Source of the DNA: a virus
Length of the DNA: 64,000 bases
Virus record (IMG/VR): IMGVR_UViG_3300018424_007835
Span: 1-64,000 of that record
Direction: 5' to 3' (one strand)
The notes beneath the pieces were generated by a model. That model did no database searches and was not told the origin of the DNA. It was given only the letters and a program-made list of their open reading frames with translations. Positions 4,072-47,900 of this stretch are shown piece after piece; within the stretch, counting starts at the first letter, position 1, and each line of letters opens with the position of its first letter. The translations under genes were made by a program, and so were the position numbers.

Positions 4072-6870
4072 CCAATCCATTACCTGATCATCAAACTCTT
4101 CGTTAGCTAAAGCTTCGTTAAGTTCTTCATCGGTGCGGGTCTGTTGTTGCCCTGAGTCGTACTGGCTGAACTCTATTACTTCAAACGGCCAAGTTGATCC
4201 ACGTTTGCACAATGTGGGCCACTCCCTGGCTTCTCGTTGACCACGATAGTGCTTAAAGTCGATTAGCTCAGGGTCGGTGGGGTCGGGGGAGAGTGCTATT
4301 CCGAACTCTGACCATCTGGACCAAACGGCTGAGCCAAAGGGGCGTAGGTCACGCTGACCTCCTGATCCCAACGGGGCGTGGTGTTCAATCCAGAGGGCGC
4401 AGTTGTATGTGTGTCGGATGTAATCTAGGAATCGGGCAATTTCAATAGATACTGATTCTGCTGTTCGTCCGCCTGGGTCGATGAACGATTTGTAGAGGGG
4501 GCCGAAGAAGAGGATGTCAGGGTCGATTGCTGCAACGTGCTCTTCTACTAGTGCCCGGTCTTGTGGTGTGAGAAGGTTGACCCCGTCTGGCTTCATAAGC
4601 AAGTGGGCGTCCATGCCTTCGTGCATTTTGTATGCTTTGATGGAATCATAGATGCGCATTGATGTTCGGCGGATAATCCGTTCAGGGTTCTCCAAGTCAA
4701 TCATCAGTGTTCTGGCTTTTGGCATTCTGTCTCTGCGGAATGGGTGAATGCCTGCGGCTGACATTAGCGCAACTTGTCGGGCAAGGGTTGTGTTGTGGGT
4801 AGGGATGAAACTTTCTCCAATAAGATAAGTGTTATCTGGGCCGTCCACAGAAATGCACAGCATTGGCTCTGGCTCGATTTTCTCCACAGCCGTAATGTAG
4901 CGATACTTAGATCGTGGCGTCCGAAGGGGCTTGATTCTGTCTGACTTGCGCTGCAGGCTGAACACCGGCAAATCTGTGGTGAAATAGATTCGGTAGCGCT
5001 TTCCTACAGCTTTTCCGTTTAGTACACTGTCCCTTTCATTGAGGGTGGCCTTGATTCCAAATGTCATCAATAACTCATGAACATCATTGGCAAGTGCCTT
5101 GTTGCAGACGCAGAACTCTGAACTTCCCCCAGTGTCAATGGTACCATCAGTGTCCATAAGTCCCTGAAGTAGTGCTAGCCGCTGACTGTAGGAGGAACGC
5201 AGGTACTGCATGGGGATGCGCTTGTTCCCCAAGATTCCCAGTTCACGTAGTTGTGTTTGTAGCCCTAAGACACCCCACATAGGAACCTTACCGTTTCGCA
5301 CTGAAGACTCCCTCAAGCGCACATCGTAGCTACCCGACACCCTGTCAATGATCTGCTTATCACTGTCAGCATTGGAGATACCACCGTTGGCGCTGTTCCC
5401 ATCCCCAAGCCAAACACCTAAGGTGTAAGGGTCGACCAGAAGATCAGCCTCTGGTAGTTGAAGTGGTTCTGTTGTGGGCACAGCGTGATTTAGTGCTTTT
5501 GAGACTCTGTTTGAAATGAGACTATCTCTAATTTCGGCGGTTGTGCGCACCTTACCGACTCGCCGTTTTTCACGCTCTTTGATTGTTTCCGTGTACCAGT
5601 TGTGTTCAGCGTCGGCGTCTACGTAGCTGCCGTCTGAGAAGTGTACACGGTATGAGTCAGGATTTGGTTCAACGGGGGAGACGTATGTGACGTTTACGGG
5701 GTTACCGAATCGGTCGATAACCTTATCTCCGACTTTAATGTCACCAAGTTTTGTCCATCCGTAAGGTGTAGGTATCATACTACTTATTGTAGCACGCTTA
5801 CCGGCACCTTCGGACGCAACTACGATTACTCGCTCCTGTCTCTCCAGCAGATTTGGAATCACCCAATCGTAGGATAGATCAAAGTCTGTCTCTAGGAACG
5901 GTGACCACTCAACAAGGTTACCGGTGTCACGGTGCTCCCGGTCCCGGGTAGACAAGAAGGTGTCTACTGAGGAGGCGACTCGGCCTGCGAGCACTCCTTC
6001 CGAAAGATCAGTGCCTTGAAGGTTTTGCAAACTTTCAATTAGGGTGTCTAGGGCTGAATGATCTACATCTGATTCTTGTTCGGGGGTTTCGTCAAATGGG
6101 ATGAGTTCGTTGGCTAGATCAGCACCCGAAGCGATAAGGTCCGCAACGTCCTTGAACTTCCCAGGCTTGAAAACCTTTACTTTGCATCCAGCAGCGAGAA
6201 GCTCGCTGTTGACGGCCCGAGCGTGAATGTAGCCGGGCTCGTCGTTGTCGCATATAATCGCAACCTTTGCCCCCGCTAGAGCCTCTGTGTGGTTCGAGGT
6301 CCACTTGTTTTGTCCTTCTCCTCCTGCGCCACCAGGGTTGGTGGTTGCAATATACCCAATAGATTCCAGGGCGTGAACGTCTTTTTCGCCTTCTACAACA
6401 TAAATTGTGTGACCGTTCATCTTGGCTTCAAGCACTTCAGGCAGACGGTACAAGGGCTTCTCAATACCGCTTGTGGTCCAGACCCATCCTCCCTGCCCAT
6501 CGGGGGCACGTTGCTTGAAGGTTTTCTTTCCATCACTGTCAACGTACCGCAGCACTTCCATGACGAGGTTATCTGTGGCATCATAGTAGGGGTACGACTC
6601 TTGAAGAGTTGCCTTCTTTTTTGGTTTTGTTGGAGACTGCTTAGTCTTTGGCCACAATTCTTGAGGGGTGACATCAATCGACTCACAAATTTCGTTCAGG
6701 TCACAACCGCCGCCTCTGAGACACTTCATCAAGACCTGACCCTGCTTGCCCACAGACACTCTCAGAGAAGGATTTTCATCATCAGCCCGACATGGGCAAG
6801 TTGCGTTCCACTGCTGCGGACCAGCCTTAGAATGATTAAGGCGTGCCAGCACGTTATCAATTGGGTCCAT
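4069..6870 (-). CDS. Primase-helicase (Zn-finger, Toprim, RecA/AAA_25 helicase), intein-interrupted
   Basis: CPC..C..GC zinc finger, VVEGEKDV, ICDNDEPG, KDVAD Toprim motifs; Walker A SEGAGK|T; IDLEN; IEHH; FGS; probable start ATG 6870. Confidence 0.92.
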   Translation of the reverse strand: MDPIDNVLARLNHSKAGPQQWNATCPCRADDENPSLRVSVGKQGQVLMKCLRGGGCDLNEICESIDVTPQELWPKTKQSPTKPKKKATLQESYPYYDATDNLVMEVLRYVDSDGKKTFKQRAPDGQGGWVWTTSGIEKPLYRLPEVLEAKMNGHTIYVVEGEKDVHALESIGYIATTNPGGAGGEGQNKWTSNHTEALAGAKVAIICDNDEPGYIHARAVNSELLAAGCKVKVFKPGKFKDVADLIASGADLANELIPFDETPEQESDVDHSALDTLIESLQNLQGTDLSEGVLAGRVASSVDTFLSTRDREHRDTGNLVEWSPFLETDFDLSYDWVIPNLLERQERVIVVASEGAGKRATISSMIPTPYGWTKLGDIKVGDKVIDRFGNPVNVTYVSPVEPNPDSYRVHFSDGSYVDADAEHNWYTETIKEREKRRVGKVRTTAEIRDSLISNRVSKALNHAVPTTEPLQLPEADLLVDPYTLGVWLGDGNSANGGISNADSDKQIIDRVSGSYDVRLRESSVRNGKVPMWGVLGLQTQLRELGILGNKRIPMQYLRSSYSQRLALLQGLMDTDGTIDTGGSSEFCVCNKALANDVHELLMTFGIKATLNERDSVLNGKAVGKRYRIYFTTDLPVFSLQRKSDRIKPLRTPRSKYRYITAVEKIEPEPMLCISVDGPDNTYLIGESFIPTHNTTLARQVALMSAAGIHPFRRDRMPKARTLMIDLENPERIIRRTSMRIYDSIKAYKMHEGMDAHLLMKPDGVNLLTPQDRALVEEHVAAIDPDILFFGPLYKSFIDPGGRTAESVSIEIARFLDYIRHTYNCALWIEHHAPLGSGGQRDLRPFGSAVWSRWSEFGIALSPDPTDPELIDFKHYRGQREAREWPTLCKRGSTWPFEVIEFSQYDSGQQQTRTDEELNEALANEEFDDQVMDW
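4792..5796 (-). mobile_element. Class-3-type intein (Arg1) with LAGLIDADG homing endonuclease, 335 aa
   Basis: GAGK|RATISSMIPTPYGW...AEHNW...LGVWLGDG...LLQGLMDTDG...MLCISV...IPTHN|T; excision restores GAGKT. Confidence 0.92.
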
Positions 6871-25308: not shown

Positions 25309-28300
25309 TCAGATTATAATTTCTATCTTCTTCCTTAGCCCCATTCCCAATCCGGCGCAAGTGTTAAAAGCGTGGACAGCGGCGTCAACTTGGTCATCGT
25401 GTACTTGGGCTTCGGGGAACGCCGATAGTTCGTCAACGAAGTCAGTGTTCCATGCACCACGTACTAGTTTTACGTTTCCATTGGCAACGGCTGCAGACAT
25501 TGGCTTTGCTCTAGTAAGTTTATCACCTGTGGCTCGCACACCTTTAAAGTCATAGCCTGGCAATACGTACCTGGCGTATTGGTCAATCAAGTTTTTACCG
25601 GCGCTTCCTGGTTCTTGTTCCATTTCTATACTTATTTCGACACCATCTTCTTCTGCGGTTTGCCGAATGAACTTTTCAACCTTTTCGCCTTTTGCCCGAA
25701 TTCTGCGTACATCAAGAATGTAGAATACCCCATTATCGAAGGCGGCGAGGCACCCAACGGTCCAGTCGGGGTCAGGGTACGATGGGGATGGTTCTGTTCC
25801 TGCAAGGTCCCAGAATCTGACAATCCTAGTATCTTTGCTAAATGATGGTATTTCTGTGAAGTCAATGACTTCAAAAGATGTGCGGTCAAACATGGAGCCC
25901 AATGCAGTTGACCACCAGTCACCAAACTCTAATCGTTTGCGCTCTACGGGGTCAAGCTCTTGAAGAACTGCCCGGTACGAGTCTGGATCAATGCCAGGGT
26001 TGTCGGTCAGCATAGATGGGATAAATATGCGACCGGTTTTCTCGCCTTCCACGAGAAAGCGCTGCCTAACCCAGTTTGGTGCCGGGTTCGTCGCCGCCCT
26101 CATACGCAGCGGCACTTGAGACAACGGCCCACTGGCAGGACGCCTGAGACGGGAGAACATGTAGCGGTAGTCTGACTCTCGGATTTCTGTAACCTCATCC
26201 ATTCCGATGAATTGAAACTCCGAGTTACCAGTCCATACAACCCTACCATTGTGGCGTGTTAGGAATGTGTGGTATGGTGGTACTGTAAGACAGTATACTT
26301 TCCCCTTGTAAGGAGTGGCAACAAGCGGCTGATTGTCAATGTTTAAGCTGATTCCAGTATCCATTCCAACTTTGTAAAGCAAATAAACATGGTATGCTGT
26401 TACACGACGCTTTTTACCGTCTGGTGTTACTGTGGAATCTTGACGTACATCAAGTGTTGCCCTAAATCCGCAGTGTTGGGCAAGTCGCATCACATCGTCG
26501 GCTAGTTGCTTAGACACTGTTACGTAATGAGCACTTTCCGGGGTTCTCCATGTCCCATCACCCTCCACAAGAGATTGCAGTAGCACTCTTGTTAGATCAG
26601 ATGTCCATGTAAAAACTTCGTCGGGTATACGTTTGTTGTGCGCTCCTTTACCAGTATTTTCGTCTAACCATTGTGCAAGTTTTTTATTACTTGTCTGCAA
26701 GTATCTAGGATTGTCGTACACATGCCCGCCCGACCTTTCAATAATTAATTTCAAATTATCTTTCTCTTGACGTGAGCGTTTGTCGTGTAACGCAATGTGT
26801 ATTTCTCCACCAGATGTACACCCTTCTGCGATGTACCACCCAATGAACGCCGCCCAATCCTCGGCAGTAAAGACTAAATCTTTACTTCTTTGATGTCCCC
26901 TACTTGATCCAGGAAATAGCGCTGCACCGGGATTTATCCCACCAGAAAACATAGCAGCCTGTGGAAATCTTGCAACTTTAGGTAGGTCTTCAGTTCTATA
27001 CTTTTTTAAATCTTTTCGACGTTGTGTGGATACCCACCATGTGTGATCACCCGTAGATGCAAAAGATACGTCTGATCCTGGTCTTGGAGAATATAGTGGT
27101 TCATCAACGTCATACTCCCATACGTGCGTCACACCTTTGTAATCCCATGTTCTAGTTTCAGGGTCCATAGATGCAACTTTTTCACCAACTTGAATTTCAT
27201 CTATTCGTTTCCAGCCATTATCTGTCATAACTTCTGTATCAGGTGCGAGCGGGCCTTTGTACCGTAGATAGTCGTTGACGTTATTTAGGTAACCGAATGT
27301 GATTCTAGCTCCCGATGGGAATGTGGCAGTGTACTGGTTGGCGTTCCAATGCACATCATCATATTGCATAATCCAGTCCCTGAACCTGTCCATCAGAGCG
27401 CCGGGAAGTGCAAGGTCGGCGTATGTTCTACGGAAGAGAATAGCTGAGTAGCCTGGCACGTCCACGTACTGTAATGCGGCCATAATTAGTGCGGAGGAGT
27501 TGTGTGTTGGGATTAAGTTTTCTGTGCAGAGGAACAGTTCATCTGGTGCGGATACTTTAAAGCAGCGCATATCGGTTGCTTCAACTCTTTCTGCTTTCTT
27601 TATGTAGCGGAAGTTGTTTGTACGACGTGTTGCGATAGATTGTGATTCAGCTTTTCTTGGAAGTTTAAACACTATTCTATTTGCAGCAAATTTTACCATC
27701 CACTTGGGACCACAGTCTTGACCGTAAAGCTTAGCACGACCTTCTCGAACATTAACCTTCATTCCAAGTGAACGAGCAAGATGCGCAACGCCATCAACTA
27801 AACCCTTATTAGTATTAGTAAACTCCACACTAGACTTTGATACGTTACCGTCAGTATCCATCAGACCTTGCAGTAATTCTAGGCGTTGCTCTTCCGATGC
27901 CCACAAGTAGTCATTAGGGATATGCTTGTTATTTAATAGATTGTTCTCCTTTAATAAATGCGTTAGGTTCTCTAGAGTAACAACTCTATAGTTTGGATCA
28001 CCCTCTCCTGATGATCGTGGTCTGCTGCTTTTAATTGCATATGGTGTGTTTTCCCATATTTCTTTATCTACTCCACAAATTGTGCCGCTGCGAGAAAACC
28101 CATCCCCCAACCATGCTCCTAGTGTGTATGGATCAATGGGTAGGTCAATAGATGCAAGTTCTAGTGGGAGTGTTACAGGAATAGCGTGGTTTGCTCGACC
28201 TCCACGAACTGTAAGTGTGTCAACAATCTCTTGCGTTGTACGCACTGTACCGGTTGGTGGTGGTTTACGGTTTTTAATAGATTCAACTTTGTTACGCTCA

Positions 28301-28782
28301 GCTACCGCAATTGACTTATATTGGCCTTGTGCGCCCGTAGCTCTTGATGGCCTATTCTGTCTGCGCATAGTCCTAAACGTGTCGTTTCGTTTTGTTAACG
28401 CCTCCAACTCTTTAGCGTCGTATGTTAACCATAGATGTTCGTCATTTGTAACTACTGTTGAACCGTCATCAAATGTAAACTTCCATCCAGGTACGTTTTG
28501 GATTTCAGACATCGCCAAGACAGTGTATGTTTTCCCATTTCTACCAAATACTGTGTTGCCTACTTCTATATCTCTTACTTTTTTAAATCCTTCGGGTGTT
28601 GGTAAAACTTCATCTAAGCTTATCAGCTTACCTCCACCGGCCGCTCCACCGAATAGCACTTCTTGTGCTTCTGTTTTGAGGAAAACTTTTTGTGTTATGC
28701 TTGGTTCTTCTACCCAGTAGTTGGAGCGTCGTGGCTCAAGGTATTGTCTGATTTTTTCCCAATCCTGGGCGTCTGTAGACAT
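25309..28782 (-). CDS. Terminase large subunit with two inteins
   Basis: Exteins join to GGAAGGGKS (Walker A), YKGSEFQFIGMDE (Walker B), ATNP, WDLA, HDDQVDA nuclease motifs. Confidence 0.95.
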   Translation of the reverse strand: MSTDAQDWEKIRQYLEPRRSNYWVEEPSITQKVFLKTEAQEVLFGGAAGGGKLISLDEVLPTPEGFKKVRDIEVGNTVFGRNGKTYTVLAMSEIQNVPGWKFTFDDGSTVVTNDEHLWLTYDAKELEALTKRNDTFRTMRRQNRPSRATGAQGQYKSIAVAERNKVESIKNRKPPPTGTVRTTQEIVDTLTVRGGRANHAIPVTLPLELASIDLPIDPYTLGAWLGDGFSRSGTICGVDKEIWENTPYAIKSSRPRSSGEGDPNYRVVTLENLTHLLKENNLLNNKHIPNDYLWASEEQRLELLQGLMDTDGNVSKSSVEFTNTNKGLVDGVAHLARSLGMKVNVREGRAKLYGQDCGPKWMVKFAANRIVFKLPRKAESQSIATRRTNNFRYIKKAERVEATDMRCFKVSAPDELFLCTENLIPTHNSSALIMAALQYVDVPGYSAILFRRTYADLALPGALMDRFRDWIMQYDDVHWNANQYTATFPSGARITFGYLNNVNDYLRYKGPLAPDTEVMTDNGWKRIDEIQVGEKVASMDPETRTWDYKGVTHVWEYDVDEPLYSPRPGSDVSFASTGDHTWWVSTQRRKDLKKYRTEDLPKVARFPQAAMFSGGINPGAALFPGSSRGHQRSKDLVFTAEDWAAFIGWYIAEGCTSGGEIHIALHDKRSRQEKDNLKLIIERSGGHVYDNPRYLQTSNKKLAQWLDENTGKGAHNKRIPDEVFTWTSDLTRVLLQSLVEGDGTWRTPESAHYVTVSKQLADDVMRLAQHCGFRATLDVRQDSTVTPDGKKRRVTAYHVYLLYKVGMDTGISLNIDNQPLVATPYKGKVYCLTVPPYHTFLTRHNGRVVWTGNSEFQFIGMDEVTEIRESDYRYMFSRLRRPASGPLSQVPLRMRAATNPAPNWVRQRFLVEGEKTGRIFIPSMLTDNPGIDPDSYRAVLQELDPVERKRLEFGDWWSTALGSMFDRTSFEVIDFTEIPSFSKDTRIVRFWDLAGTEPSPSYPDPDWTVGCLAAFDNGVFYILDVRRIRAKGEKVEKFIRQTAEEDGVEISIEMEQEPGSAGKNLIDQYARYVLPGYDFKGVRATGDKLTRAKPMSAAVANGNVKLVRGAWNTDFVDELSAFPEAQVHDDQVDAAVHAFNTCAGLGMGLRKKIEIII
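26224..27252 (-). mobile_element. Class-3-type intein (Pro1, penultimate Gly) with LAGLIDADG domain, 343 aa
   Basis: YKG|PLAPDTEVMTDNGW...TGDHTW...GWYIAEG...LVEGDG...VYCLTV...WTGN|S. Confidence 0.92.
27499..28626 (-). mobile_element. Class-3-type intein (Leu1) with LAGLIDADG domain, 376 aa
   Basis: GGGK|LISLDEVLPTPEGF...DEHLW...LGAWLGDG...GLMDTDG...MRCFKV...IPTHN|S. Confidence 0.92.
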
Positions 28783-28982: not shown

Positions 28983-30619
28983 TGGCTTGGAATTCTGGGG
29001 TGAATAAAGCGGTAGGTTCTCAGTTGGGGGCGGGGGAGAAGGCTGCTAAGATTTCGGTTGGTGCTCCTATTTCTTATAGTCCGTCAGTTCAGGTGAACAG
29101 TCAAATGAATAAGGGTTATTCTGATGGCTGGGATATAACGAAGGCTTATAAGGAAGCTATGGCAAAGGTGACGTGGGTTTACCGTGCTATTAATGTGATT
29201 GCTTCTAATCAAGCCAGTTTGCCTATGATTTTACGTAAGGATAACAGTCCGTTTGGTGAGATTGTTAACGATAATCCTTTGTTGAAGATTTTTAATAATA
29301 CCACAAATCTTGGTGAGAACGCTTGGGCGTTTAGGTCTAGGCTTAGTTCTCAGCTGCTGCTTAGCAGTCGAGGTGTTTTTGTTGAGGTTGTACGAGATCG
29401 TGTCGGTACCCCTGTTGCGCTACATTTATTGCCCCCTCAGAACACTGCACCCATTCCTGATGAAAAGAAGTTTGTGAAAGGGTTTGAGGTTAAGATTACA
29501 GCGTATCAGGCTAAGATTTTGAAGCCAGAGGATGTTATTTGGATTCGTCAGCCGCATCCTTTGGACCCGTATTTGTCTATGACGCCTATGGAGTCTGCGG
29601 GGATGGCGATTGAAGTTGAGACGTTGGCAAAAATTTATAATCGCAACTTCTTGTTAAACGATGGCCGCCCGGGTGGGTTGTTGGTTCTTCGTAGCGAGAT
29701 TGATGAGGCGGACAAGGAAGAGTTGCGCAGTAGGTTCCGTGGTGATCTGAGCCGTACCGGTGCTGTGGGTGTGATTTCGTCTGACGACGGTGCAGATTTT
29801 GTGGACACTGCTGCGAGCCCACGGGATGCTGCCTATCAGGCGATGCGTACTATTTCTAAGGAAGAGATTCTTGCTGCGTTTGGTGTGCCTGAGTCAGTTA
29901 TTGGTAACGCATCTGGTCGAACGTTTGCTAACGCTGCCGAGGAGGGCAAGGTGTTTTGGATGGAGACTATGGGTCCCCATTTGCAGTTAATTGCTCGCAG
30001 TTTTGATCGTATTGATGATACATATTTTGTGGATTTTGATACTAGTGGCGTGCCTATTATGATTTTGGCGAAGCAGGAGCGTGAGCGACATAATTTGACT
30101 GAGTTCCAGCAGGGGCTTATCTCTGTTAATGAGTATCGTGAATCGTCTGCTCGTAAGAAAGTTGTTTCAGAGCTTGCTGATTCGCTTTTGTCTAATCCTA
30201 ACTTGACTCCGGTTGGTAATACGGAGAAGCCTATGGTTAGCGAAGAACAGGGGGCTGTGCCTCCTGGTGCCCCACCAATGCCTGGGGCTCCGCCGATGGA
30301 AGGTGCCCTACCGGCTGACGGCGCACCCCCGATGACACCTGAGCAAGCGGCTCGTTTTGCGGCAGGCGCAGCAGTGCCTCCCCAGATTGAAGCTGGGGTT
30401 TCTTTGCAGCAGCAAGCCACAGCAGCGCTGCAAGAGCAGGTTACCGAATTTAGCCCAGAGGAGGGTGCGTTTGTACCATTTGGGTCTGTTCAAGGGACAC
30501 AGCAAATTGAGTTGCCTGCATCTGAAGTTCCTAGCGAGCTAGAGGAGTTGGAGGAGGATGAGAAGAGCCTCCCTTTAGATTTGAAGATAAAGGAGCTGGA
30601 GAAGCTTCTGCTAAAGTAG
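28982..30619 (+). CDS. Portal protein (HK97 family) with Pro/Glu-rich tail
   Basis: WVYRAINVIA..QASLP, EEILAAFGVP, TFANA, ISVNEYR. Confidence 0.94.
   Translation: MAWNSGVNKAVGSQLGAGEKAAKISVGAPISYSPSVQVNSQMNKGYSDGWDITKAYKEAMAKVTWVYRAINVIASNQASLPMILRKDNSPFGEIVNDNPLLKIFNNTTNLGENAWAFRSRLSSQLLLSSRGVFVEVVRDRVGTPVALHLLPPQNTAPIPDEKKFVKGFEVKITAYQAKILKPEDVIWIRQPHPLDPYLSMTPMESAGMAIEVETLAKIYNRNFLLNDGRPGGLLVLRSEIDEADKEELRSRFRGDLSRTGAVGVISSDDGADFVDTAASPRDAAYQAMRTISKEEILAAFGVPESVIGNASGRTFANAAEEGKVFWMETMGPHLQLIARSFDRIDDTYFVDFDTSGVPIMILAKQERERHNLTEFQQGLISVNEYRESSARKKVVSELADSLLSNPNLTPVGNTEKPMVSEEQGAVPPGAPPMPGAPPMEGALPADGAPPMTPEQAARFAAGAAVPPQIEAGVSLQQQATAALQEQVTEFSPEEGAFVPFGSVQGTQQIELPASEVPSELEELEEDEKSLPLDLKIKELEKLLLK
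30552..30577 (+). promoter_or_regulatory. Putative -1 programmed ribosomal frameshift signal (SD plus C CCU UUA)
   Basis: Heptamer 30571-30577 in X XXY YYZ phase with the portal frame; AGGAGG 13 nt upstream; the -1 frame is the MuF frame. Confidence 0.7.
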
Positions 30620-31398
30620 ACTTTTCTTCTTGGGACGAAAAAACTCTGTATAGAGTGAACTCTTTTGAAGATAGGGTGTCTGCTGCACTTGATAAAATTT
30701 TTGATGAGCAGGAGCGTTTAGCGCTTGCCGCTGTTAACTCGGATGTGTCGAAGTCCATTCTAGCGGCTGGCGTCTCTGCTGGAGTTGAGAATATTATCAC
30801 TTCTGCTGATTTGAGACAAGTTTCCGAGAAGCTTCTTCCATTGATGCAAGATATTTATCGCAAAGCTGTTGAGGATACAGTCGAAGAGGGCTATGGCTCT
30901 GAAGTTAGTGAGCCTACCGAAACAGCGGCTGGGTCTCAACAGATTGTGGTTGTAAATAATTTCAATGATACTACGCAAGAAGAAATTAAGTCGGCGTTGA
31001 CTACTGCGGCTGTTTTGACCGACGGCGATGGCGGTGATGTGGATGTTGCTTTGAAGTTAGCTTTAGCGTACTCATTGATAAAGTCTATTTTCAATAAACT
31101 GCGGGCGTCTCGTAAAAATCTTATTTTAGAGACTGCAGTGTATGGTTCCTATAATCAGGGTCTTTTCGATGCCGCTGTAGCCAATGAGGTGGCGACATCC
31201 CGCACCCTAATGAAGCAGTGGGTGTCCATGTTGGACGGTAAGGTTAGGGACAGCCATAGGGCTCTCCACGGGGATAAAGTGCAGGTAGGTGCTCCTTTTT
31301 TTGTAAATGGTGTTGCTATTAGGTTCCCCAAGGACCCCCTTGCCCCTCCCAATTTAACTATTGGCTGCAGGTGCGTGCTTAAGTTTTCAATAAACTAA
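30571..31398 (+). CDS. MuF/SPP1 gp7-like minor head protein, probably expressed as a portal fusion
   Basis: KQWVS..DGKVRDSH..LHG...PF......FP.DP....N..IGCRC; frame open from 30562; GTG 30655 lacks an RBS. Confidence 0.88.
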   Translation, partial: PFRFEDKGAGEASAKVDFSSWDEKTLYRVNSFEDRVSAALDKIFDEQERLALAAVNSDVSKSILAAGVSAGVENIITSADLRQVSEKLLPLMQDIYRKAVEDTVEEGYGSEVSEPTETAAGSQQIVVVNNFNDTTQEEIKSALTTAAVLTDGDGGDVDVALKLALAYSLIKSIFNKLRASRKNLILETAVYGSYNQGLFDAAVANEVATSRTLMKQWVSMLDGKVRDSHRALHGDKVQVGAPFFVNGVAIRFPKDPLAPPNLTIGCRCVLKFSIN

Positions 31399-31474: not shown

Positions 31475-33025
31475 ATGAGCGTCATTGAAGTTACAGATGT
31501 AGCGTCTGACACAAGCTTTAAAGCTATTTCCGGTCAGATTGGCATTGATAAAGCTCAAGGAATTGTTGAGGCTTTTGTTTCTGGTATCGGCAACAAAGAT
31601 TCAGTTGGCGATATTGTAGTTTCTGGGGCGTTTAACGGCTCACTTAAGCGTCGCAAGCCTCGTGTGGTGTGGGGGCATGATTGGAATCAGCCTATTGGCA
31701 AGGTTTTAGAAATTTATGAAGTCTCAAAGTCTGATCCTCGTCTTCCCGCAAAAATGAAAGATGCTGGAATTGGTGGGTTATACGCTAAGGTTCAGTTCAA
31801 TTTGAATACCGAAAGAGGCCGAGAAGCCTTTGCCAATGTGGCCTTTTATGGCAATGATCAAGAGTGGTCGATTGGGTATAAAACGATTGTTGCAGATTTT
31901 GACGCTGTATGGCAAGCGAACATGTTGAAAGAAGTAGAGCTTTACGAGATTTCACCGGTACTTCATGGCGCAAATCAGCTGACTGGAACAATCTCTGTCA
32001 AAGACGATGAAAACGGTCGCACATCCAAGGGTTGGCACACTGGAGATGACGATAAGGATGGTCCTATGAATAGTGTGGACGCAATGTCAGAGCGAGTTGG
32101 CCAGGCTCTATCGCAGGCGCTTCGTAAGCCTGTTCAGATCTTGGAAATTGATGGCGATAATGTTGTTTTCCAAACGGGAGAAGATATGGTGTGGTCCGCT
32201 ACCATGTCAATGGAAAACGGACAAATGATGGTTGGCCGTCCCACTAGGGTAAAGCCAACGACGACATATACTCCTATGGGGGATGACGCTCCTCCTTCTA
32301 TGATGATCAAAGACCCTGACGCAAAGGGGATTCTTGAAGACGAGTACGCCTTTGCTACTGCTAAGATTGCTGCGGCGTGGTCGATTACTTTAGGCTGCAC
32401 TGGGTATCACACCCACGGTGGTGGATTTGTTCCTTGCGATACTCATGAACAATATCTTGCCGCAATCAAAAAGTTTGAAGAAAACGGCGGGGTAAATCGG
32501 GGTCCTGCCCATGACGACATTTTAAATGTTGATGTTGATGAAACTAAGGGTGCAGGTACTGGCTGTTCATGTGACACCGAGGAAAAGGGTTACGGGCACA
32601 GACCAAAAGAAAAGCCAGAGTACCTTAAAGACCCAATGGCCCTTCTACTCATGGCCTACAACGAGATGTTGAAGCTACGTGGGGCATCGGACCTTCGTGA
32701 CGCAACACTAGCCCTCATCAGCGAAGTTGAGGGGTTTCTCACCGAAGCGCCGATGGCTCGCCCAGGAGAGCAGGGCGAAAAGACTGAAACTGGTCTGGTC
32801 GTCCACGTAAAGTGCGGAGAGGCTGCCACCTTGGATCTTGGTCGTGCTTTGGGTAATCTTCCGGTTGTGGCTCGGAAAAGTGAATCCGGTGTTGATATTC
32901 ACTTTACGGATGAGATGAAGGAAGAGTGGTTGATGGAGAAAGTTGCCATCGCCTTGTCGGAGCTTAAGTTCGACGTTGATATTGCAGTAACTAGACCGAT
33001 TGACACCGGTTCGGGTGTTCAGTAA
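31475..33025 (+). CDS. HK97-family prohead protease with long C-terminal extension
   Basis: DSVGDIV..GAF, WGHDW..PIG, WSIGY, LYEISPVLHGAN. Confidence 0.93.
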   Translation: MSVIEVTDVASDTSFKAISGQIGIDKAQGIVEAFVSGIGNKDSVGDIVVSGAFNGSLKRRKPRVVWGHDWNQPIGKVLEIYEVSKSDPRLPAKMKDAGIGGLYAKVQFNLNTERGREAFANVAFYGNDQEWSIGYKTIVADFDAVWQANMLKEVELYEISPVLHGANQLTGTISVKDDENGRTSKGWHTGDDDKDGPMNSVDAMSERVGQALSQALRKPVQILEIDGDNVVFQTGEDMVWSATMSMENGQMMVGRPTRVKPTTTYTPMGDDAPPSMMIKDPDAKGILEDEYAFATAKIAAAWSITLGCTGYHTHGGGFVPCDTHEQYLAAIKKFEENGGVNRGPAHDDILNVDVDETKGAGTGCSCDTEEKGYGHRPKEKPEYLKDPMALLLMAYNEMLKLRGASDLRDATLALISEVEGFLTEAPMARPGEQGEKTETGLVVHVKCGEAATLDLGRALGNLPVVARKSESGVDIHFTDEMKEEWLMEKVAIALSELKFDVDIAVTRPIDTGSGVQ

Positions 33026-33054: not shown

Positions 33055-34986
33055 ATGAGTGAAAACTTTGATGAAGATCTTCAGCGGTTTGAGGAATTGA
33101 GCGCTGCAATGGAGCCCTCTGAGGGTGATGAAAAGGGTGTGCATATGGATGAGGTCCGCAAGGGCGCTCCGTCCGTGTTTATGACTGATATTCGGTTTAA
33201 GGAGTCTTTGGAAACTGGAGACCTTCTTTCGGAAGAAGCGTTTGCTGATCTTGATGAGGATGACCAAAAGAGCTATGAGCTTGTAGAGATTCTTGATGAG
33301 AAGGGCGAAGAGCCGATGGGGTGGGCATACCGCTTTAAGGCTGATGACATCGAAGATGTTGAAGAAGCTCTTGAGGTTGAGGAAAAGACTGAGACTGATG
33401 AAGATACTGAGGTACCTGAAGAAAAGTCGGATGAACCAGAGGACTTTGAAGAGAAGACTGAAGAGGTAGAAGCTACTGAGGAAAAGGTTGATGATACATC
33501 TGACCCTGTTGCGGAACAGTTGCTCAGCAAAAGGGCTGCTGACATTTTGGCTCGCATGCGTGCCCCTATGGAGGAAGCCGTTGAGGAAGAAGAAAAGGCT
33601 CCTTCAATTTTCTTGACCGATATTCGGTTCAAGGAGATGGTAGAAGATGGTGAGCTTATTGAAGAGGAAGAATTTGCGTCTTTGGATGAAGATGCAAAGG
33701 GGGCTTTCCAGCCTGTAGATGTTTTTGAGGAAGGCACGGGTAAGGGTTACGGTATGCGGTATCGTCGCAGGAGTCCTATGGAAATTTCCGCTATGCGCAA
33801 GGGTGGAGATGACACTGGCGAAAAGGCGGCTGAGGGCGGTGACGATGCTGAGGACGTGTTTGCCTCCGCAGAGGCGGCAGAAGCACGGGCTGCTGAGCTT
33901 GGTTGCGCAGGGACGCACCGGGCTGGCGCTATGTGGATGCCTTGCGCTACTCATGATGAGTGGATGGAGTTAAGTGCTGCTGCTAAACCAGACGAACCCG
34001 AAGCTGCACCTGCTCCCGCTCCCGCTCCCGCTGCTGCCGCCCCACCGGCAGCAGGCGGAATGGCAATGCCAGCCAAGGAAGAATTCCTTTGTGGCTACCA
34101 GCGCAAGTCTGTTTCTGAATCTTGTGGTTTTTGTACAGGCGGTTGCGCATCTCAAGACGGCCTTCCAGGGCTAGCAGACATTGAAGCCCAGGTTAAGGAA
34201 GCGTACCTTAATTCTGAAATTATCGGATCTGGCTACTCATCCAACGACGACGTGTTTGTTGTTGATGTGAAGCGTGAAGATGGTTCGCTTATTGAAGTAT
34301 TTTTGACTGGCGACGGCGATGAGTTGGGGTGGCTACGTCTGAATGAGAGTTCGCTGGAAAGCAAGTCGGCTGAACCAGTTGATATTATTTCTAAAGCAAC
34401 GGCTGAAAAGCTTGCTCTGGATGCGGTTGATCAGCTAGGCTTTAAGGCTGAGGCAATGTCTATTACAGTGGATGTGTACGCTGAGCAAGATGTCTATGTA
34501 GTCGAAGCAGACTCTGAAGAGAAGAGCTTTGATGTTTTTGTTTCAGCTGACGGTAAGGTGCTTGGCTATGACGAGTACAGCTATTCTGAGCCGATGGAGT
34601 TGTCCGAAGAAGATGAGATCAAGGCGCTGGAAGCTGAGCTTGCAATTAAGCGCTTGTACTCTCGGGAGCAGCGTGAAGAAATGGCGGCCTCTGGAGAAGC
34701 TTTAGAAGATGGATCATTCCCAATTGCGGATGAAGCGGATTTAGCCAACGCAGTTCAGGCGTTTGGGCGGGCGGCTGATCCTGATTCCGCAAAAGAGCAC
34801 ATTATGAAGCGGGCCAAGGAACTGAAGCGGGAAGATATGATTCCTGAGGACTGGAAAACATCCACGGAAGAAGTCATGGAGGCTGCGCCCGCTGATGGGG
34901 CAGATGGTGAAGAAAAGGCAGCAGAAGATTTAGAGTTGCTGCGTTCACTTTTGGAGTTTGAAGAACTTGAGGGTGGCATTTCTTAA
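33055..34986 (+). CDS. Acidic scaffold-like head protein with internal repeats
   Basis: Very Glu/Asp-rich; duplicated APS(V/I)F(M/L)TDIRFKE unit; GCxGxH..WMPC module; C-terminal ALEDGSFPI module. Confidence 0.75.
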   Translation: MSENFDEDLQRFEELSAAMEPSEGDEKGVHMDEVRKGAPSVFMTDIRFKESLETGDLLSEEAFADLDEDDQKSYELVEILDEKGEEPMGWAYRFKADDIEDVEEALEVEEKTETDEDTEVPEEKSDEPEDFEEKTEEVEATEEKVDDTSDPVAEQLLSKRAADILARMRAPMEEAVEEEEKAPSIFLTDIRFKEMVEDGELIEEEEFASLDEDAKGAFQPVDVFEEGTGKGYGMRYRRRSPMEISAMRKGGDDTGEKAAEGGDDAEDVFASAEAAEARAAELGCAGTHRAGAMWMPCATHDEWMELSAAAKPDEPEAAPAPAPAPAAAAPPAAGGMAMPAKEEFLCGYQRKSVSESCGFCTGGCASQDGLPGLADIEAQVKEAYLNSEIIGSGYSSNDDVFVVDVKREDGSLIEVFLTGDGDELGWLRLNESSLESKSAEPVDIISKATAEKLALDAVDQLGFKAEAMSITVDVYAEQDVYVVEADSEEKSFDVFVSADGKVLGYDEYSYSEPMELSEEDEIKALEAELAIKRLYSREQREEMAASGEALEDGSFPIADEADLANAVQAFGRAADPDSAKEHIMKRAKELKREDMIPEDWKTSTEEVMEAAPADGADGEEKAAEDLELLRSLLEFEELEGGIS

Positions 34987-44206: not shown

Positions 44207-44817
44207 TGTACAAGTATTATGCGCTTGCTGATGGAAACATGATAGTCGCTCGGGTTAGCGATTCGGGGGACTCCGCAGTTTTTTTCGCTAAGCGGGGTTG
44301 GCAGGACGATGTGGATGCCTTTGAGGAAACCGTAGAAGTACGGAAAGCCCGTCAAGAATCGGCTCCGTATGACGAGGCTGTTCTTAAGAATGCCTTTTCT
44401 GATTTGGTTGAGATTAGTTCAGCCCTATTTGATAGTGCCGTAGGACAAATCAACACTTTCAATCAAGAGTACGATAACAATCAAGCACAGCTTGAGGGTA
44501 TGACTGATCATGATATGGGGTTTTTTATTACTGAGTTTCCTGCACGCCGCCCACGTTTAGCTTCCTATGAGGATATTAACAAGCTGTGGACTGCTATGTT
44601 TGTGGTTTCTACGGGAGGGGGCGATGATGAAGGTGTTCGCACACCTGAGCAAACTCGTGCCGATCTAAAGGCGTTGTATTCTTTGTTGAAGAACGCTGAG
44701 AACACAAACGACGGTTCCACTATTCGTAATTTGGTTCGTTCTTTGGGTGATTTTGATACAGGTATTGTACCGGACCGTGGTTTGGTTGAGCCTGTTCAAA
44801 GGAGGGGTAATGGCTAA
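44206..44817 (+). CDS. Acidic hypothetical protein
   Basis: TGATG-coupled, GGAGG RBS. Confidence 0.75.
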   Translation: MYKYYALADGNMIVARVSDSGDSAVFFAKRGWQDDVDAFEETVEVRKARQESAPYDEAVLKNAFSDLVEISSALFDSAVGQINTFNQEYDNNQAQLEGMTDHDMGFFITEFPARRPRLASYEDINKLWTAMFVVSTGGGDDEGVRTPEQTRADLKALYSLLKNAENTNDGSTIRNLVRSLGDFDTGIVPDRGLVEPVQRRGNG

Positions 44818-46315
44818 GGACCCATTGGAAGATCAGACAGTTCCGACTAAAGAGATGGCAGAAGAGTTATCTCGTATTTTGGGTTGTTCGGGGGCGCATA
44901 AAATTGGCGATGATGCGTGGGGCCCGTGTGAGTCTTCATCAGATTTAAAGAGGCTTATTCGTATGGGCAATCCTGCGTTTCGTGAATGGAAGAAACGTCA
45001 GGGTAAAGGTGGGTTTGAGGACTTGTTGCGCTTGAAGGCCGTTGGTGCCCGCAAAGGAATGTTTGATACGCAGGCTGAAGCTGAAATGGCGGCTGTGCGA
45101 TTGGGTTGCTTTGGGGCACATCAGGCGGGGCAGGGGCGGTGGGCTCCTTGTGGTACTCCAGAAGAGCATAATGCTGTTCATGCTTCAGAGCCAAATGGTA
45201 GAAGGGTTTTACGGGCAGCTAAGCCTGCCCGTCGTGTTATTACTAATCCTAAGGTGTGGGAAAACTTACGGGAGCGTGGGCCGCTTCGCATAGAGACGCT
45301 ACCTGGGGGTGGTTTAGTTTCTGGTAAGGCTGCCGCATCGGATTCGTTTAAGCCCACGGCTGGTATGGTTGAGGAAGCAAAGCGGGCTTTGGATTGGCGT
45401 AAAGAGTTTGGCCGTGGGGGTACTATGGTTGGTATTGCACGGGCAAGGGACATAGCTAATGGCCGCAATTTGCCGTATGCTACGGTGAAGCGTATGAAGG
45501 CGTTTTTTGATAGGCATCAGAGTGATTCTAAAGCGGAGGGGTATCGGCCGGGGGAGAAGGGTTTTCCTTCTAATGGTCGGATTGCTTGGGCGCTGTGGGG
45601 CGGTGATGCTGGGTATACGTGGGCTAAGGCTATTGTTCGCCGGGTGGAGGGTAAAGAGAAGTCTATTTTTGATTCGATTGAAGAGAAGCGTTTCTATACT
45701 CGTAAGCGTAGGGATGAGTACGCTAAGCGTGGATGGGCGCTTCCTGATGGGTCGTTTCCGATTAGGGATGTGGGGGATTTGCGAAACGCAATTCAGGCTT
45801 ACGGGTTAGGTAAGAATCGGGCTGCAGCTAAGCGTCATATTATGAAGCGGGCGAGGGCGTTGGGGCGGACCGATTTGATTCCTGATAATTGGAAGCAGAG
45901 AGAGAAAGCTGCCCGTCGAGGCGGTGATCCTAAAACTCCAGCTAAGCCGTCTGAGCGTATATCGGGGTCTAGTAGAAATAAGCCAGGGTCAGCGTCCGGG
46001 AAACGAAACAATATTGAGTTATCTGCGGCGGTGAAGAACTCCTTAAAAGATAAGGTTAAGACACACAATGAGAAAATGCGGAGTAGCGATAAGCCCGACC
46101 GGACTGTTACGCTGGGGCGTTTAACGGCTGTTTGGCGTAGGGGTGCTGGCGCTTTTTCGCAAACGCACCGCCCGAACATGTCTAGGCAACAGTGGGCGAT
46201 GGGCAGGGTGAATGCTTTTCTAAAATTGGTGTCTAGTGGAAAACCTTCAAACCCGAAGTACACGACCGATAACGATTTGTTGCCCGAGAAGCATCCACGT
46301 TATTCTAAGGGTTGA
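44810..46315 (+). CDS. Basic modular head-associated protein built from small phage domains
   Basis: Two GCxGAH..W.PC modules, VKRMKAFF.RH...IAWALWGG domain, ALPDGSFPI domain, RRGAGAF...QWAMGRVNAF domain; AGGAGG RBS before ATG 44810. Confidence 0.8.
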   Translation: MAKDPLEDQTVPTKEMAEELSRILGCSGAHKIGDDAWGPCESSSDLKRLIRMGNPAFREWKKRQGKGGFEDLLRLKAVGARKGMFDTQAEAEMAAVRLGCFGAHQAGQGRWAPCGTPEEHNAVHASEPNGRRVLRAAKPARRVITNPKVWENLRERGPLRIETLPGGGLVSGKAAASDSFKPTAGMVEEAKRALDWRKEFGRGGTMVGIARARDIANGRNLPYATVKRMKAFFDRHQSDSKAEGYRPGEKGFPSNGRIAWALWGGDAGYTWAKAIVRRVEGKEKSIFDSIEEKRFYTRKRRDEYAKRGWALPDGSFPIRDVGDLRNAIQAYGLGKNRAAAKRHIMKRARALGRTDLIPDNWKQREKAARRGGDPKTPAKPSERISGSSRNKPGSASGKRNNIELSAAVKNSLKDKVKTHNEKMRSSDKPDRTVTLGRLTAVWRRGAGAFSQTHRPNMSRQQWAMGRVNAFLKLVSSGKPSNPKYTTDNDLLPEKHPRYSKG

Positions 46316-46496: not shown

Positions 46497-47900
46497 ATGA
46501 ACATGAGTTTTGATGAGAGTCGTCTCAATGAGCTGAAGGGTGCTTTGTCTGAGAAGATGGCAGAGCAGCGTCAGATTGCTGATTCGATGCAGATTGAGGG
46601 GACTACCCTTATTGCTGACGCAGAGAAGAAGGCTGCGTTCCAGAAGAATATGGTTGACATCAAGGAAATTAAGGGTCTCATTGAGGGTCTTGGTGAGCTT
46701 GAGGAAGTTCAGAAGTGGGCTTCGGAGCCGAATCAGAAGAGCGTGGCTGCTGCGGCAGATGCGGCTGCTGATCGTCGTCCGCAGGCTTCGACTGTGGGTG
46801 GTGCCTTTTTGGATTCGCCTGAGTTCAAGGATTTGCAGGGTGGCCGAAATGGTTACACCATGCGCTCGCCTTTTGAGGTGAAGAGCCTTCTTACCAAGGA
46901 TATTCATCAAGGTACTCCTGGTGGGACCGGTTTTGCAGCCCCTGATATGTTTGGTGGAGTTGAGCGTGACGGTATTGTGCAGCTTCCGCAGCGTAGCCGC
47001 CGGGTTCGGGATCTTTTCCCTGCCCGCACGACTAATGCTGCGGTTGTTGAGTACTTCCGTCAGACCGGCTATGTGCTTAGCACCTACGGTACCGGTCGTG
47101 CAGTCACTCCTGGTACGCCGGGTGGTGACGGATGGCGTGCCGGGTTTGCGTCTGCGGCTTCGGCTTACATGGTACCTGAGCGTGATGGGAGTGAGTTTGG
47201 CATGAAGCCACAGTCAAGCCTTTCCTTTGTTGGCCGTCAGGCTCCGGTGCGCACTATTGCTCACTGGGAAGCTGCTCACCGTAATGTGTTGTCGGATGAG
47301 CCTCAGCTTCGTGGGATCATTGACAATGAGCTTCTGTACGGCCTTCGCCTTATGGAGGATCAGCAGATCCTTAATGGCGACGGCAGCGGCGACCAGCTTG
47401 ACGGTATCCTCAACGACAGCGACATTCAGGCTTATACCCACCCGAACTTCTCACCGGGCTACGCTTCGGCCGCTTCAGCGAACGAGTCCACTGACACGAA
47501 GGCTGACGCAATTCGTCGTGCGCTTACTCTCGCCTACCTGGCGAACTACGAGCCCACTGGCGTGATTGTCAACCCGATTGACTGGGAAGACATTGAGCTG
47601 ACGAAGAACAGCCAGGGCACCTACCTCCTTGCGATGTCGGTTGCTGGTGGCGCTGAGTCACGGGTGTGGCGGGTTCCCGTCATCGACACCCCTGCGATTG
47701 CTCAGGGCACGGCGCTGGTTGGTGCCTTCGGTACCGGCGCTCAGCTGTACGACCGTGAGGCGGCTTCGATCCGTATTTCGGAGAACTACGATGACTTCTT
47801 CACTCGGAACGCTATTGTTGTTCTGGCTGAAGAGCGCCTTGCCCTTGCGGTGAAGCGCCCCGAGTCGTTCGTTGCAATTACCTTAGGTGAACAACCATAA
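46497..47900 (+). CDS. Major capsid protein (HK97 fold with delta domain)
   Basis: Coiled-coil N-terminus; KPQS, VRTIAHW, EDQQILNGDG, FTRNAIVVLAEERLALAVKRPESF. Confidence 0.95.
   Translation: MNMSFDESRLNELKGALSEKMAEQRQIADSMQIEGTTLIADAEKKAAFQKNMVDIKEIKGLIEGLGELEEVQKWASEPNQKSVAAAADAAADRRPQASTVGGAFLDSPEFKDLQGGRNGYTMRSPFEVKSLLTKDIHQGTPGGTGFAAPDMFGGVERDGIVQLPQRSRRVRDLFPARTTNAAVVEYFRQTGYVLSTYGTGRAVTPGTPGGDGWRAGFASAASAYMVPERDGSEFGMKPQSSLSFVGRQAPVRTIAHWEAAHRNVLSDEPQLRGIIDNELLYGLRLMEDQQILNGDGSGDQLDGILNDSDIQAYTHPNFSPGYASAASANESTDTKADAIRRALTLAYLANYEPTGVIVNPIDWEDIELTKNSQGTYLLAMSVAGGAESRVWRVPVIDTPAIAQGTALVGAFGTGAQLYDREAASIRISENYDDFFTRNAIVVLAEERLALAVKRPESFVAITLGEQP

Follow-up and report, generated by a model that had tools for sequence, protein, structure and literature searches.

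A conserved slippery heptamer at the portal-MuF junction of an uncultured virus and the -1 frameshift that it probably programs

The portal-MuF junction

The window discussed here is the whole stretch of 64,000 nucleotides (nt) that was analysed, positions 1 to 64,000 of the IMG/VR virus record IMGVR_UViG_3300018424_007835 (109,717 bp, linear, ~74% complete), and its subject is the junction between the portal gene and the open frame of a MuF-type head protein that follows it directly. The portal is identified by its match to PF04860 (Phage_portal; E=4.5e-48, residues 65-387, 164.5 bits vs a gathering cutoff of 39.1) and consists of a Pro/Ala/Glu-rich linker from ~residue 420 onward. The downstream frame carries PF04233 (Phage_Mu_F) at residues 181-273, with 39.0 bits vs a gathering cutoff of 29.6. 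The MuF frame lies at -1 relative to the portal frame, and comparison of this junction with its relatives makes it very probable that a programmed -1 ribosomal frameshift joins the two into a portal-MuF fusion.

The anatomy of the site can be read directly, and in this the original prediction, which had been made from the letters of the window, was accurate. The portal codons CTC CCT TTA set the heptamer C_CCT_TTA (30571-30577) in the X_XXY_YYZ register required of a slippery site. An internal AGGAGG at 30552-30557, resembling a Shine-Dalgarno (SD) sequence, ends 13 nt 5' of the heptamer. The MuF frame opens at 30562, behind a TGA and 9 nt ahead of the heptamer, and meets no stop until 31396-31398. 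The product sizes also come out as forecast: unshifted translation gives 545 amino acids (aa), and the predicted transframe product has 532 + 273 = 805 aa. Together, the SD-like element, a purine tract and the heptamer make up a compact cassette, which in the window reads GGAGGAT-GA-GAAGAG-CCT-CCCTTTA. Taken as a single sequence, the coincidence is weak, with an estimated ~4-7% chance of finding any in-register heptamer within the 58-nt overlap of the two frames. The arrangement is nevertheless far beyond chance, because heptamer, register, -1 relation and upstream block are all kept in 39 distinct junctions.

Conservation of the cassette

These junctions come from a protein-guided scan of IMG/VR that recovered 80 loci with portal identities of 62-99%, in which frames were assigned with tblastn and frame bookkeeping. 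The cassette-bearing set amounts to ~60 contigs from many samples, and its 39 distinct junctions, anchored on the heptamer, are the basis of the counts given below. Among these relatives MuF identity ranges over 40-100% and portal identity over 62-99%. The check that the original prediction had proposed, whether homologous portal-MuF pairs keep a slippery heptamer and the -1 relationship, has a clear outcome: every locus that has a MuF after the portal, and no start of its own for it, has that MuF in the -1 frame, and all of these -1 relatives carry CCCTTTN in register, exactly 9 nt after the opening of the MuF frame. The overlap between portal open reading frame (ORF) and MuF frame varies from 22 to 58 nt, and the zero-frame tail after the heptamer from 4 to 17 codons.

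Conservation is concentrated in a 24-nt block, GGAGGGT-RR-GAAGAG-NNN-CCCTTT, which is invariant or nearly so and yields the family consensus GGAGGGT-RR-GAAGAG-NNN-CCCTTTN. Information content is 1.0-2.0 bits at each position from -18 to +5, counted from the heptamer. The zero-frame third-codon positions within the block (-15, -12, -9, -6, 0 and +3) are all 100% conserved, and third positions flanking it on either side have <0.5 bits. GAGG is invariant and GGAGG is present in ~85% of junctions at the same 13-nt spacing, which extends the predicted internal SD element from the window to the family. The last base of the heptamer is U in 27 cases, A in 6, C in 1 and G in none. A scan of all IMG/VR with the cassette pattern returned 65 contigs, with 61 matches at portal/MuF junctions; the remaining 4 (2 distinct sequences) are chance matches in small ORFs that have no GGAGG.

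Several further features of the junction were recorded alongside. The GAAGAG tract between the SD-like element and the heptamer is invariant. The -1-frame stop 9 nt 5' of the heptamer is kept in every cassette-bearing relative, as TGA (21), TAG (10) or TAA (3), and these variants give E, R or K in the zero frame. TGG, the fourth purine combination, never occurs at junctions, although the pattern used for IMG/VR permitted it, and was seen solely in the chance matches. This retention may be the work of selection to keep the -1 frame closed immediately 5' of the shift site, or it may simply follow from the constraint on the purine tract. In the subclade of the window (L003, L004, L005 and L028) the zero-frame tail is long, with 14-17 residues and a conserved amphipathic pattern L-x-x-x-L-x-L-L-E-x-L-L. 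It overlaps the linker of the MuF frame there, so that a short stretch is coding in two frames.

Translation of MuF from the heptamer on

Where does translation of MuF begin? The -1-frame peptides of the family start with P-F-(S/R), continue through 8-20 variable residues and then reach a conserved W-(E/D)-x-K-x-L-Y, of which W-x-x-K is found in 36/38 distinct junctions. Between the opening of the frame and this W-x-x-K there is no ATG, GTG or TTG in 35/36 distinct junctions, and in 28/36 CTG and ATH are absent from the interval as well. The position of the first canonical start in the MuF frame is not conserved and falls anywhere from 30 to ~240 nt after the frame opens. In the window the earliest ATG, GTG or TTG is the GTG at 30655, which has no purine-rich SD before it; the original prediction had noted that this nominal start lacks a ribosome-binding site (RBS), and the drift of the start among relatives adds to that observation. 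Because MuF has no start of its own, it would in this phage be made only by way of the slip.

The substitution pattern points the same way. Between heptamer and W, differing codons in an equal-length subclade are synonymous in 44% of cases when read in the -1 frame, vs 18% and 2% in the other two frames; over 114 nt the synonymous share is 58% in the -1 frame vs 12% and 3%. These values argue that MuF is under purifying selection and that its -1-frame coding signature begins directly after the heptamer. An AlphaFold model of the translated MuF frame (19-sequence alignment, mean predicted local distance difference test score, pLDDT, 82.9) has residues 1-21 disordered and a first helix formed by residues 24-58, starting at W24. 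The GTG at 30655 corresponds to residue 32 in this model, and a protein starting there would lose the first eight residues of helix 1. A Foldseek search of the model against the PDB gave no match at E <= 0.001, and a search with the MuF of the most divergent member of the family, L062, added only distant C-terminal matches.

Natural controls among relatives

Close relatives that lack the cassette provide natural controls. In a sister group (L041-L046, L193 and L200) the cassette is absent and MuF has an ATG ten codons before the conserved W; the portal ends in …PSELSNEES, and the MuF ATG, in the +1 frame, overlaps the portal stop. Another group (L039, L047, L049, L051, L053-L059 and L063-L065) has neither cassette nor MuF, and its protease gene follows the portal directly after a gap of ~110 nt. 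Two relatives have an in-frame fusion. The first, the more distant homologue L211, has a single 738-aa portal-MuF ORF that is 57% identical in the portal part and 32% in MuF. The second, L037 (IMGVR_UViG_3300005805_008308, 4743-5240), keeps the heptamer and has 5 nt fewer after it, with the result that the zero frame enters MuF; its -1 frame stops after six codons, so that a -1 slip would give a short product, and its GAAGAG tract has degenerated to GCAGTT. Either L037 has truly reverted to constitutive fusion, or this single 5-kb contig was misassembled.

In-frame fusions also occur in the closest cultured relatives, Brevibacterium phage Cantare (gp7, 793 aa) and Gordonia phage Hanem (gp23, 886 aa), whose portals are ~43% identical and which have PF04860 and PF04233 within one annotated gene each. 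More such fusion genes have been described in Microbacterium phage clusters EA3/EA5/EA8/EB and in Streptomyces phage Gilgamesh gp46 (PMC7302621). The predicted 805-aa product is built like proteins that really exist in this lineage. In a portal tree, built by a quick search and midpoint-rooted with long outgroup branches, every deep sublineage of the clade has the frameshift state; each of the three exceptions is monophyletic, all of them lying within one subclade (support 84), and in-frame fusions lie outside the clade. An order of events among the junction states is only suggested by this tree.

Candidate stimulators

The sole conserved candidate for a stimulator of the shift lies upstream. 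In dnaX and many insertion sequence (IS) elements, SD-stimulated -1 shifting operates at a spacing of 9-14 nt (PMC5009743), and the 13-nt spacing of GGAGG falls within that range in the window and in its relatives. The SD-like GGAGG is on this comparison the likely stimulator, with the odds somewhat in its favour.

Downstream of the heptamer, the hairpin at 30591-30609 that the original prediction had pointed out does exist in the window, but its proposed part in the signal did not hold up. Shuffled sequences fold just as well as the 60 nt that follow the heptamer (-12.4 kcal/mol in the window, z ~-0.6), the mean fold z over the 39 junctions is -0.44, and RNAalifold finds neither conserved downstream pairs nor covariation, the hairpin being without counterpart in relatives. 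The only consensus pairs that RNAalifold reports join GAGGG with the CCCUU of the heptamer: five pairs, invariant and without covariation. In the window this pairing (30554-30558 with 30571-30575, across a 12-nt loop) has one pair broken, the upstream partner being GAGGA. As a structural element GAGGG/CCCUU was rejected, since its invariance makes it uninformative and it cannot form with a ribosome on the site. Two other candidates fared no better: an extended anti-SD pairing with GGAGG-G-UGA fits only the TGA variants, and a CCUCC after the purine tract that might pair with GGAGG is contradicted by the codon before CCU, which varies (CTC, GCC, GTC, GAC, CAC, CGC).

As for the heptamer itself, the H_HH.U_UU.Y class is listed among the 15 best bacterial motifs (PMC4066793). 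The CCCUUUN variants have been measured in Escherichia coli with no stimulator, with the IS911 stimulators and with the IS3 pseudoknot (PMC4066793 Table S3): -1 shifting was 0.21%, 3.0% and 11.7% for CCCUUUU, 0.19%, 1.4% and 23.2% for CCCUUUC, 0.37%, 0.68% and 2.9% for CCCUUUA, and 0.15%, 0.30% and 0.70% for CCCUUUG. Across the family the last base is most often U, then A, then C, and never G, so that the least efficient variant is avoided.

Weighing the explanations

A number of observations weigh against a programmed frameshift and have to be set beside the evidence for it. No conserved downstream stimulatory structure emerges from the alignment, although a downstream hairpin or pseudoknot, 5-9 nt after the heptamer, is not obligatory for this class of shift. 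Given the possible GAGGG/CCCUU pairing, the upstream element has more than one possible interpretation besides that of an SD alone. GGAGG alone is common in the window, with 108 occurrences vs 127 expected. The window's heptamer, ending in A, shifts only modestly in E. coli (0.37-2.9%). A conserved peptide, E-G/D-E-K-S-L-P, is encoded by the upstream block as well, whose conservation could in part lie at the protein level.

Could MuF be made as a separate protein after all, from the GTG at 30655, with a non-canonical start or by ribosomes reinitiating beyond the portal stop, and with GGAGG as its RBS? A GGAGG before a downstream gene is the usual layout of coupled genes, and the sister group does use its own MuF ATG overlapping the portal stop. 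However, no ATG, GTG or TTG lies 5-10 nt after GGAGG in any frame, the -1 codons there being GAA GAG CCT CCC TTT. Canonical starts, and in most junctions CTG and ATH too, are missing ahead of W-x-x-K, the first available start wanders by ~200 nt among relatives, and the GTG of the window has no SD and cuts into helix 1. The coding signature starts at the heptamer, and the group that has its own ATG has lost the cassette. An independent start in homologues had been named beforehand as an observation that would speak against the frameshift; what is found is that carriers of the cassette have no start and carriers of the ATG have no cassette. Separate translation is accordingly improbable. Marginally less probable again is that the cassette is kept for a protein-level reason, such as a prohead-protease site (D/G)EK|SL, with the heptamer incidental and MuF expressed through some other, unrecognised recoding. 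In its favour, the putative cleavage motif (E.|.E)K[SAGT] is enriched in a 643-aa head protein and in the N-terminal 130 residues of the capsid, and the portal has DEK|SLP at residues 526-531. A constraint on the peptide, however, leaves the invariance at synonymous positions -15, -12, -9, -6 and +3 unexplained, and equally the absence of the motif from just those relatives that lack MuF or start it at an ATG of its own. Moreover, the same stretch could be both protease site and shift site, the two being compatible and not alternatives.

Two further explanations locate the change of frame outside the ribosome, and both are very unlikely. The break could be an assembly or sequencing indel in a true in-frame fusion, or the mark of a pseudogene; the window is a metagenomic contig, and in-frame fusions are known in L037, L211, Cantare and Hanem. 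The original prediction had itself named a 1-bp indel error as the finding that would undo it. Yet the same -1 relation recurs in ~60 independent contigs of diverged sequence, from many samples and with 39 distinct junctions, and two other assemblies (L001 and L002), 98-99% identical to the window, have the identical junction. Purifying selection on MuF and conservation of the zero-frame tail within subclades speak against decay. Alternatively, RNA polymerase slippage could delete or add a base in the messenger RNA (mRNA). Some phages, and Thermus dnaX, obtain equivalent fusions by polymerase slippage, and the homopolymers known to cause it are roughly 8-9 A/T long. The longest homopolymers here, however, are C3/T3 (T4-T5 in relatives), and the strict codon register and fixed SD spacing are irrelevant to a polymerase and defining for ribosomal shifting.

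Proposed mechanism and purpose

With a programmed ribosomal frameshift as the preferred explanation, the sequence of events can be sketched. A ribosome on the portal mRNA would reach C_CCU_UUA with the proline transfer RNA (tRNA-Pro) on CCU in its P site and tRNA-Leu on UUA in its A site, and a fraction of ribosomes would re-pair on CCC and UUU and then read AGA UUU GAA. During elongation GGAGG would pair with the 16S ribosomal RNA tail of the ribosome, as it does in dnaX and IS elements. Slipped ribosomes would cross a disordered stretch of ~20 residues into the MuF domain, giving an 805-aa portal-MuF beside the 545-aa portal.

What would such a device be for? The C-terminus of the portal points into the capsid, so each slip would deliver one MuF to the portal vertex inside the procapsid, and shift efficiency would therefore set the copy number of MuF: at 3-12%, a dodecamer would carry ~0.4-1.4 MuF. 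This fits with what is known of MuF elsewhere. The muf genes lie directly after portal genes, SPP1 gp7 (MuF) binds the portal (PMC5576092), and gp7 enters the procapsid in 1-2 or 'a few' copies (PMC5576092, PMC6316719). That recoding sets the share of portal subunits carrying a MuF is a reasonable proposal, somewhat better than an even bet.

An extension of this proposal, which we regard as rather doubtful, is a Gag-Pol-like device in which the slip tethers ~1 MuF per dodecamer and the prohead protease then cuts at (D/G)EK|SL, freeing MuF in the head. The portal has DEK|SLP at 526-531, where relatives have GEK|SLP; the motif lies three residues ahead of the shift site. The motif (E.|.E)K[SAGT] occurs 11 times in the 643-aa scaffold-like protein vs 3.4 expected, a count that 0/500 shuffles reach, and 4 times within residues 1-130 of the capsid protein (PF05065) vs 0.7 expected, including EVK|SLL at residue 127; it is absent from most non-head proteins tested. 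This enrichment is consistent with HK97-type protease sites after Lys. In the portal the count is not significant (2 vs 1.3 expected), and two relatives have no K-S pair. Were the idea correct, the cut would leave an identical mature portal whether or not the subunit came from a shift, and the cassette would be triple-coded, as an RNA shift signal, a protease site and a -1-frame stop kept 9 nt upstream.

The head-gene block

The genes around the junction form a head-gene block (Table 1), with the protease gene next after MuF and larger head proteins beyond it. The 33-residue DUF3721 (PF12518) recurs in three proteins of this region: the protease extension (31475-33025), the 643-aa protein (33055-34986) and a 522-aa protein (44747-46315). 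In the large terminase, which is transcribed from the opposite strand, the intein and homing-endonuclease domains precede the RNaseH-like nuclease domain. A nucleotide search (blastn) against cultured phages gave no match for the window, and a scan of 185,579 species genomes found no prophage relatives and assigned no host. The window has no tRNA genes through which the shift could be tuned.

Table 1. Features of the portal-MuF junction and of the surrounding head genes (window coordinates)
Feature	Position	Strand	Basis or remark
Slippery heptamer C_CCU_UUA, X_XXY_YYZ; proposed -1 shift site	30571..30577	+	sequence
Conserved recoding cassette: SD-like GGAGG, purine tract and heptamer	30553..30577	+	family conservation
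SD-like GGAGGAGG, candidate 5' stimulator	30550..30557	+	last G 13 nt 5' of heptamer
TGA in the -1 (MuF) frame	30559..30561	+	-1 frame thus opens at 30562, 9 nt 5' of heptamer
-1-frame part of the predicted 805-aa portal-MuF product, 273 codons + stop	30577..31398	+	open frame; PF04233
Zero-frame tail of unshifted portal, DLKIKELEKLLLK-stop, overlapping the MuF frame	30578..30619	+	sequence
W-D-E-K, start of MuF helix 1, 5' of nominal start	30631..30642	+	conservation; model
Nominal GTG start of 247-aa MuF ORF, probably unused	30655..30657	+	no SD; inside helix 1
Hairpin	30591..30609	+	present in window, not conserved
Portal gene, zero-frame product 545 aa	28982..30619	+	ORF list; PF04860
MuF open frame, PF04233 at C-terminal end	30562-31398	+	profile match
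Prohead protease, S78/HK97 type, with C-terminal extension; next gene 3' of MuF	31475..33025	+	PF04586 E=3.7e-12
Larger head proteins 3' of protease, including 643-aa scaffold-like protein and capsid	33055-34986 (643-aa); 46497-47900 (capsid)		PF05065 (capsid)
Large terminase, 1157 aa, intein-interrupted	25309-28782	-	LAGLIDADG/Hom_end and Hint/intein-splicing domains

Significance and comparison with known systems

The mechanism proposed here, a -1 shift on a heptamer with an SD element, is a known one, and the gene pair portal-MuF appears not to have been described for it. No report of a portal-MuF frameshift was found in the literature searched; the word 'portal' is absent from the portion of the 2016 recoding review available as text (PMC5009743) and from the PRFect paper, where MuF appears only with VIP2 fusions. 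How one or two copies of a minor protein come to be placed on a 12-fold portal is an old question of assembly. The answer in SPP1 is non-covalent binding, and the genome analysed here appears to set the number of MuF by translation. Between them, close relatives show four states (a fusion by frameshift, a constitutive fusion, a separate gene, and no MuF at all), and the idea is therefore directly testable by junction swaps. For annotation, the finding concerns ~60 uncultured viral contigs whose MuF ORF gene callers will truncate or start arbitrarily. For recoding biology, it offers a well-conserved bacterial-virus site that seemingly relies on an upstream SD-like block alone, with a heptamer, C_CCU_UUN, that is rare among known bacterial cases.

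The nearest mechanistic parallels are E. coli dnaX and IS3/IS911, which share the X_XXY_YYZ heptamer and the internal SD-like element 9-14 nt upstream (PMC5009743, PMC4066793). Unlike them, the junction here has C_CCU_UUN instead of A_AAA_AAG, no conserved downstream hairpin or pseudoknot, and an extra invariant GAAGAG tract. The shift would lengthen the product, as in IS elements and unlike in dnaX. Among phage structural genes, the lambda G/GT tail chaperone, the T3/T7 10A/10B capsid, the Lactobacillus phage A2 head and Listeria phages PSA/A118 each give a recoded C-terminal extension to a fixed minority of a virion-assembly protein and thereby set a stoichiometry (PMC5009743; Xu et al. 2004, as cited in PMC7302621). 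The present case differs from these in the gene pair and in the nature of the extension, which is a whole assembly protein that is normally its own gene.

Other systems share the product or the purpose. The actinophage fusions (Cantare gp7, Hanem gp23 and others) have the same order of PF04860 and then PF04233 on one polypeptide. They are constitutive, and all 12 subunits would carry MuF, whereas here the fusion would depend on the slip and most subunits should be plain portal. In SPP1, MuF likewise lies directly after the portal and reaches the procapsid interior via the portal in low copy; gp7 is separately translated there and binds non-covalently, whereas the link proposed here would be covalent and translational. 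Retroviral and totiviral Gag-Pol (PMC5009743) is alike in that inefficient -1 shifting attaches a minor component to a major assembly protein, with which it is packaged at a set ratio. The present case is set apart from Gag-Pol by belonging to a double-stranded DNA phage of bacteria, by its probable SD-type stimulator, and by a later proteolytic release that is only a hypothesis here.

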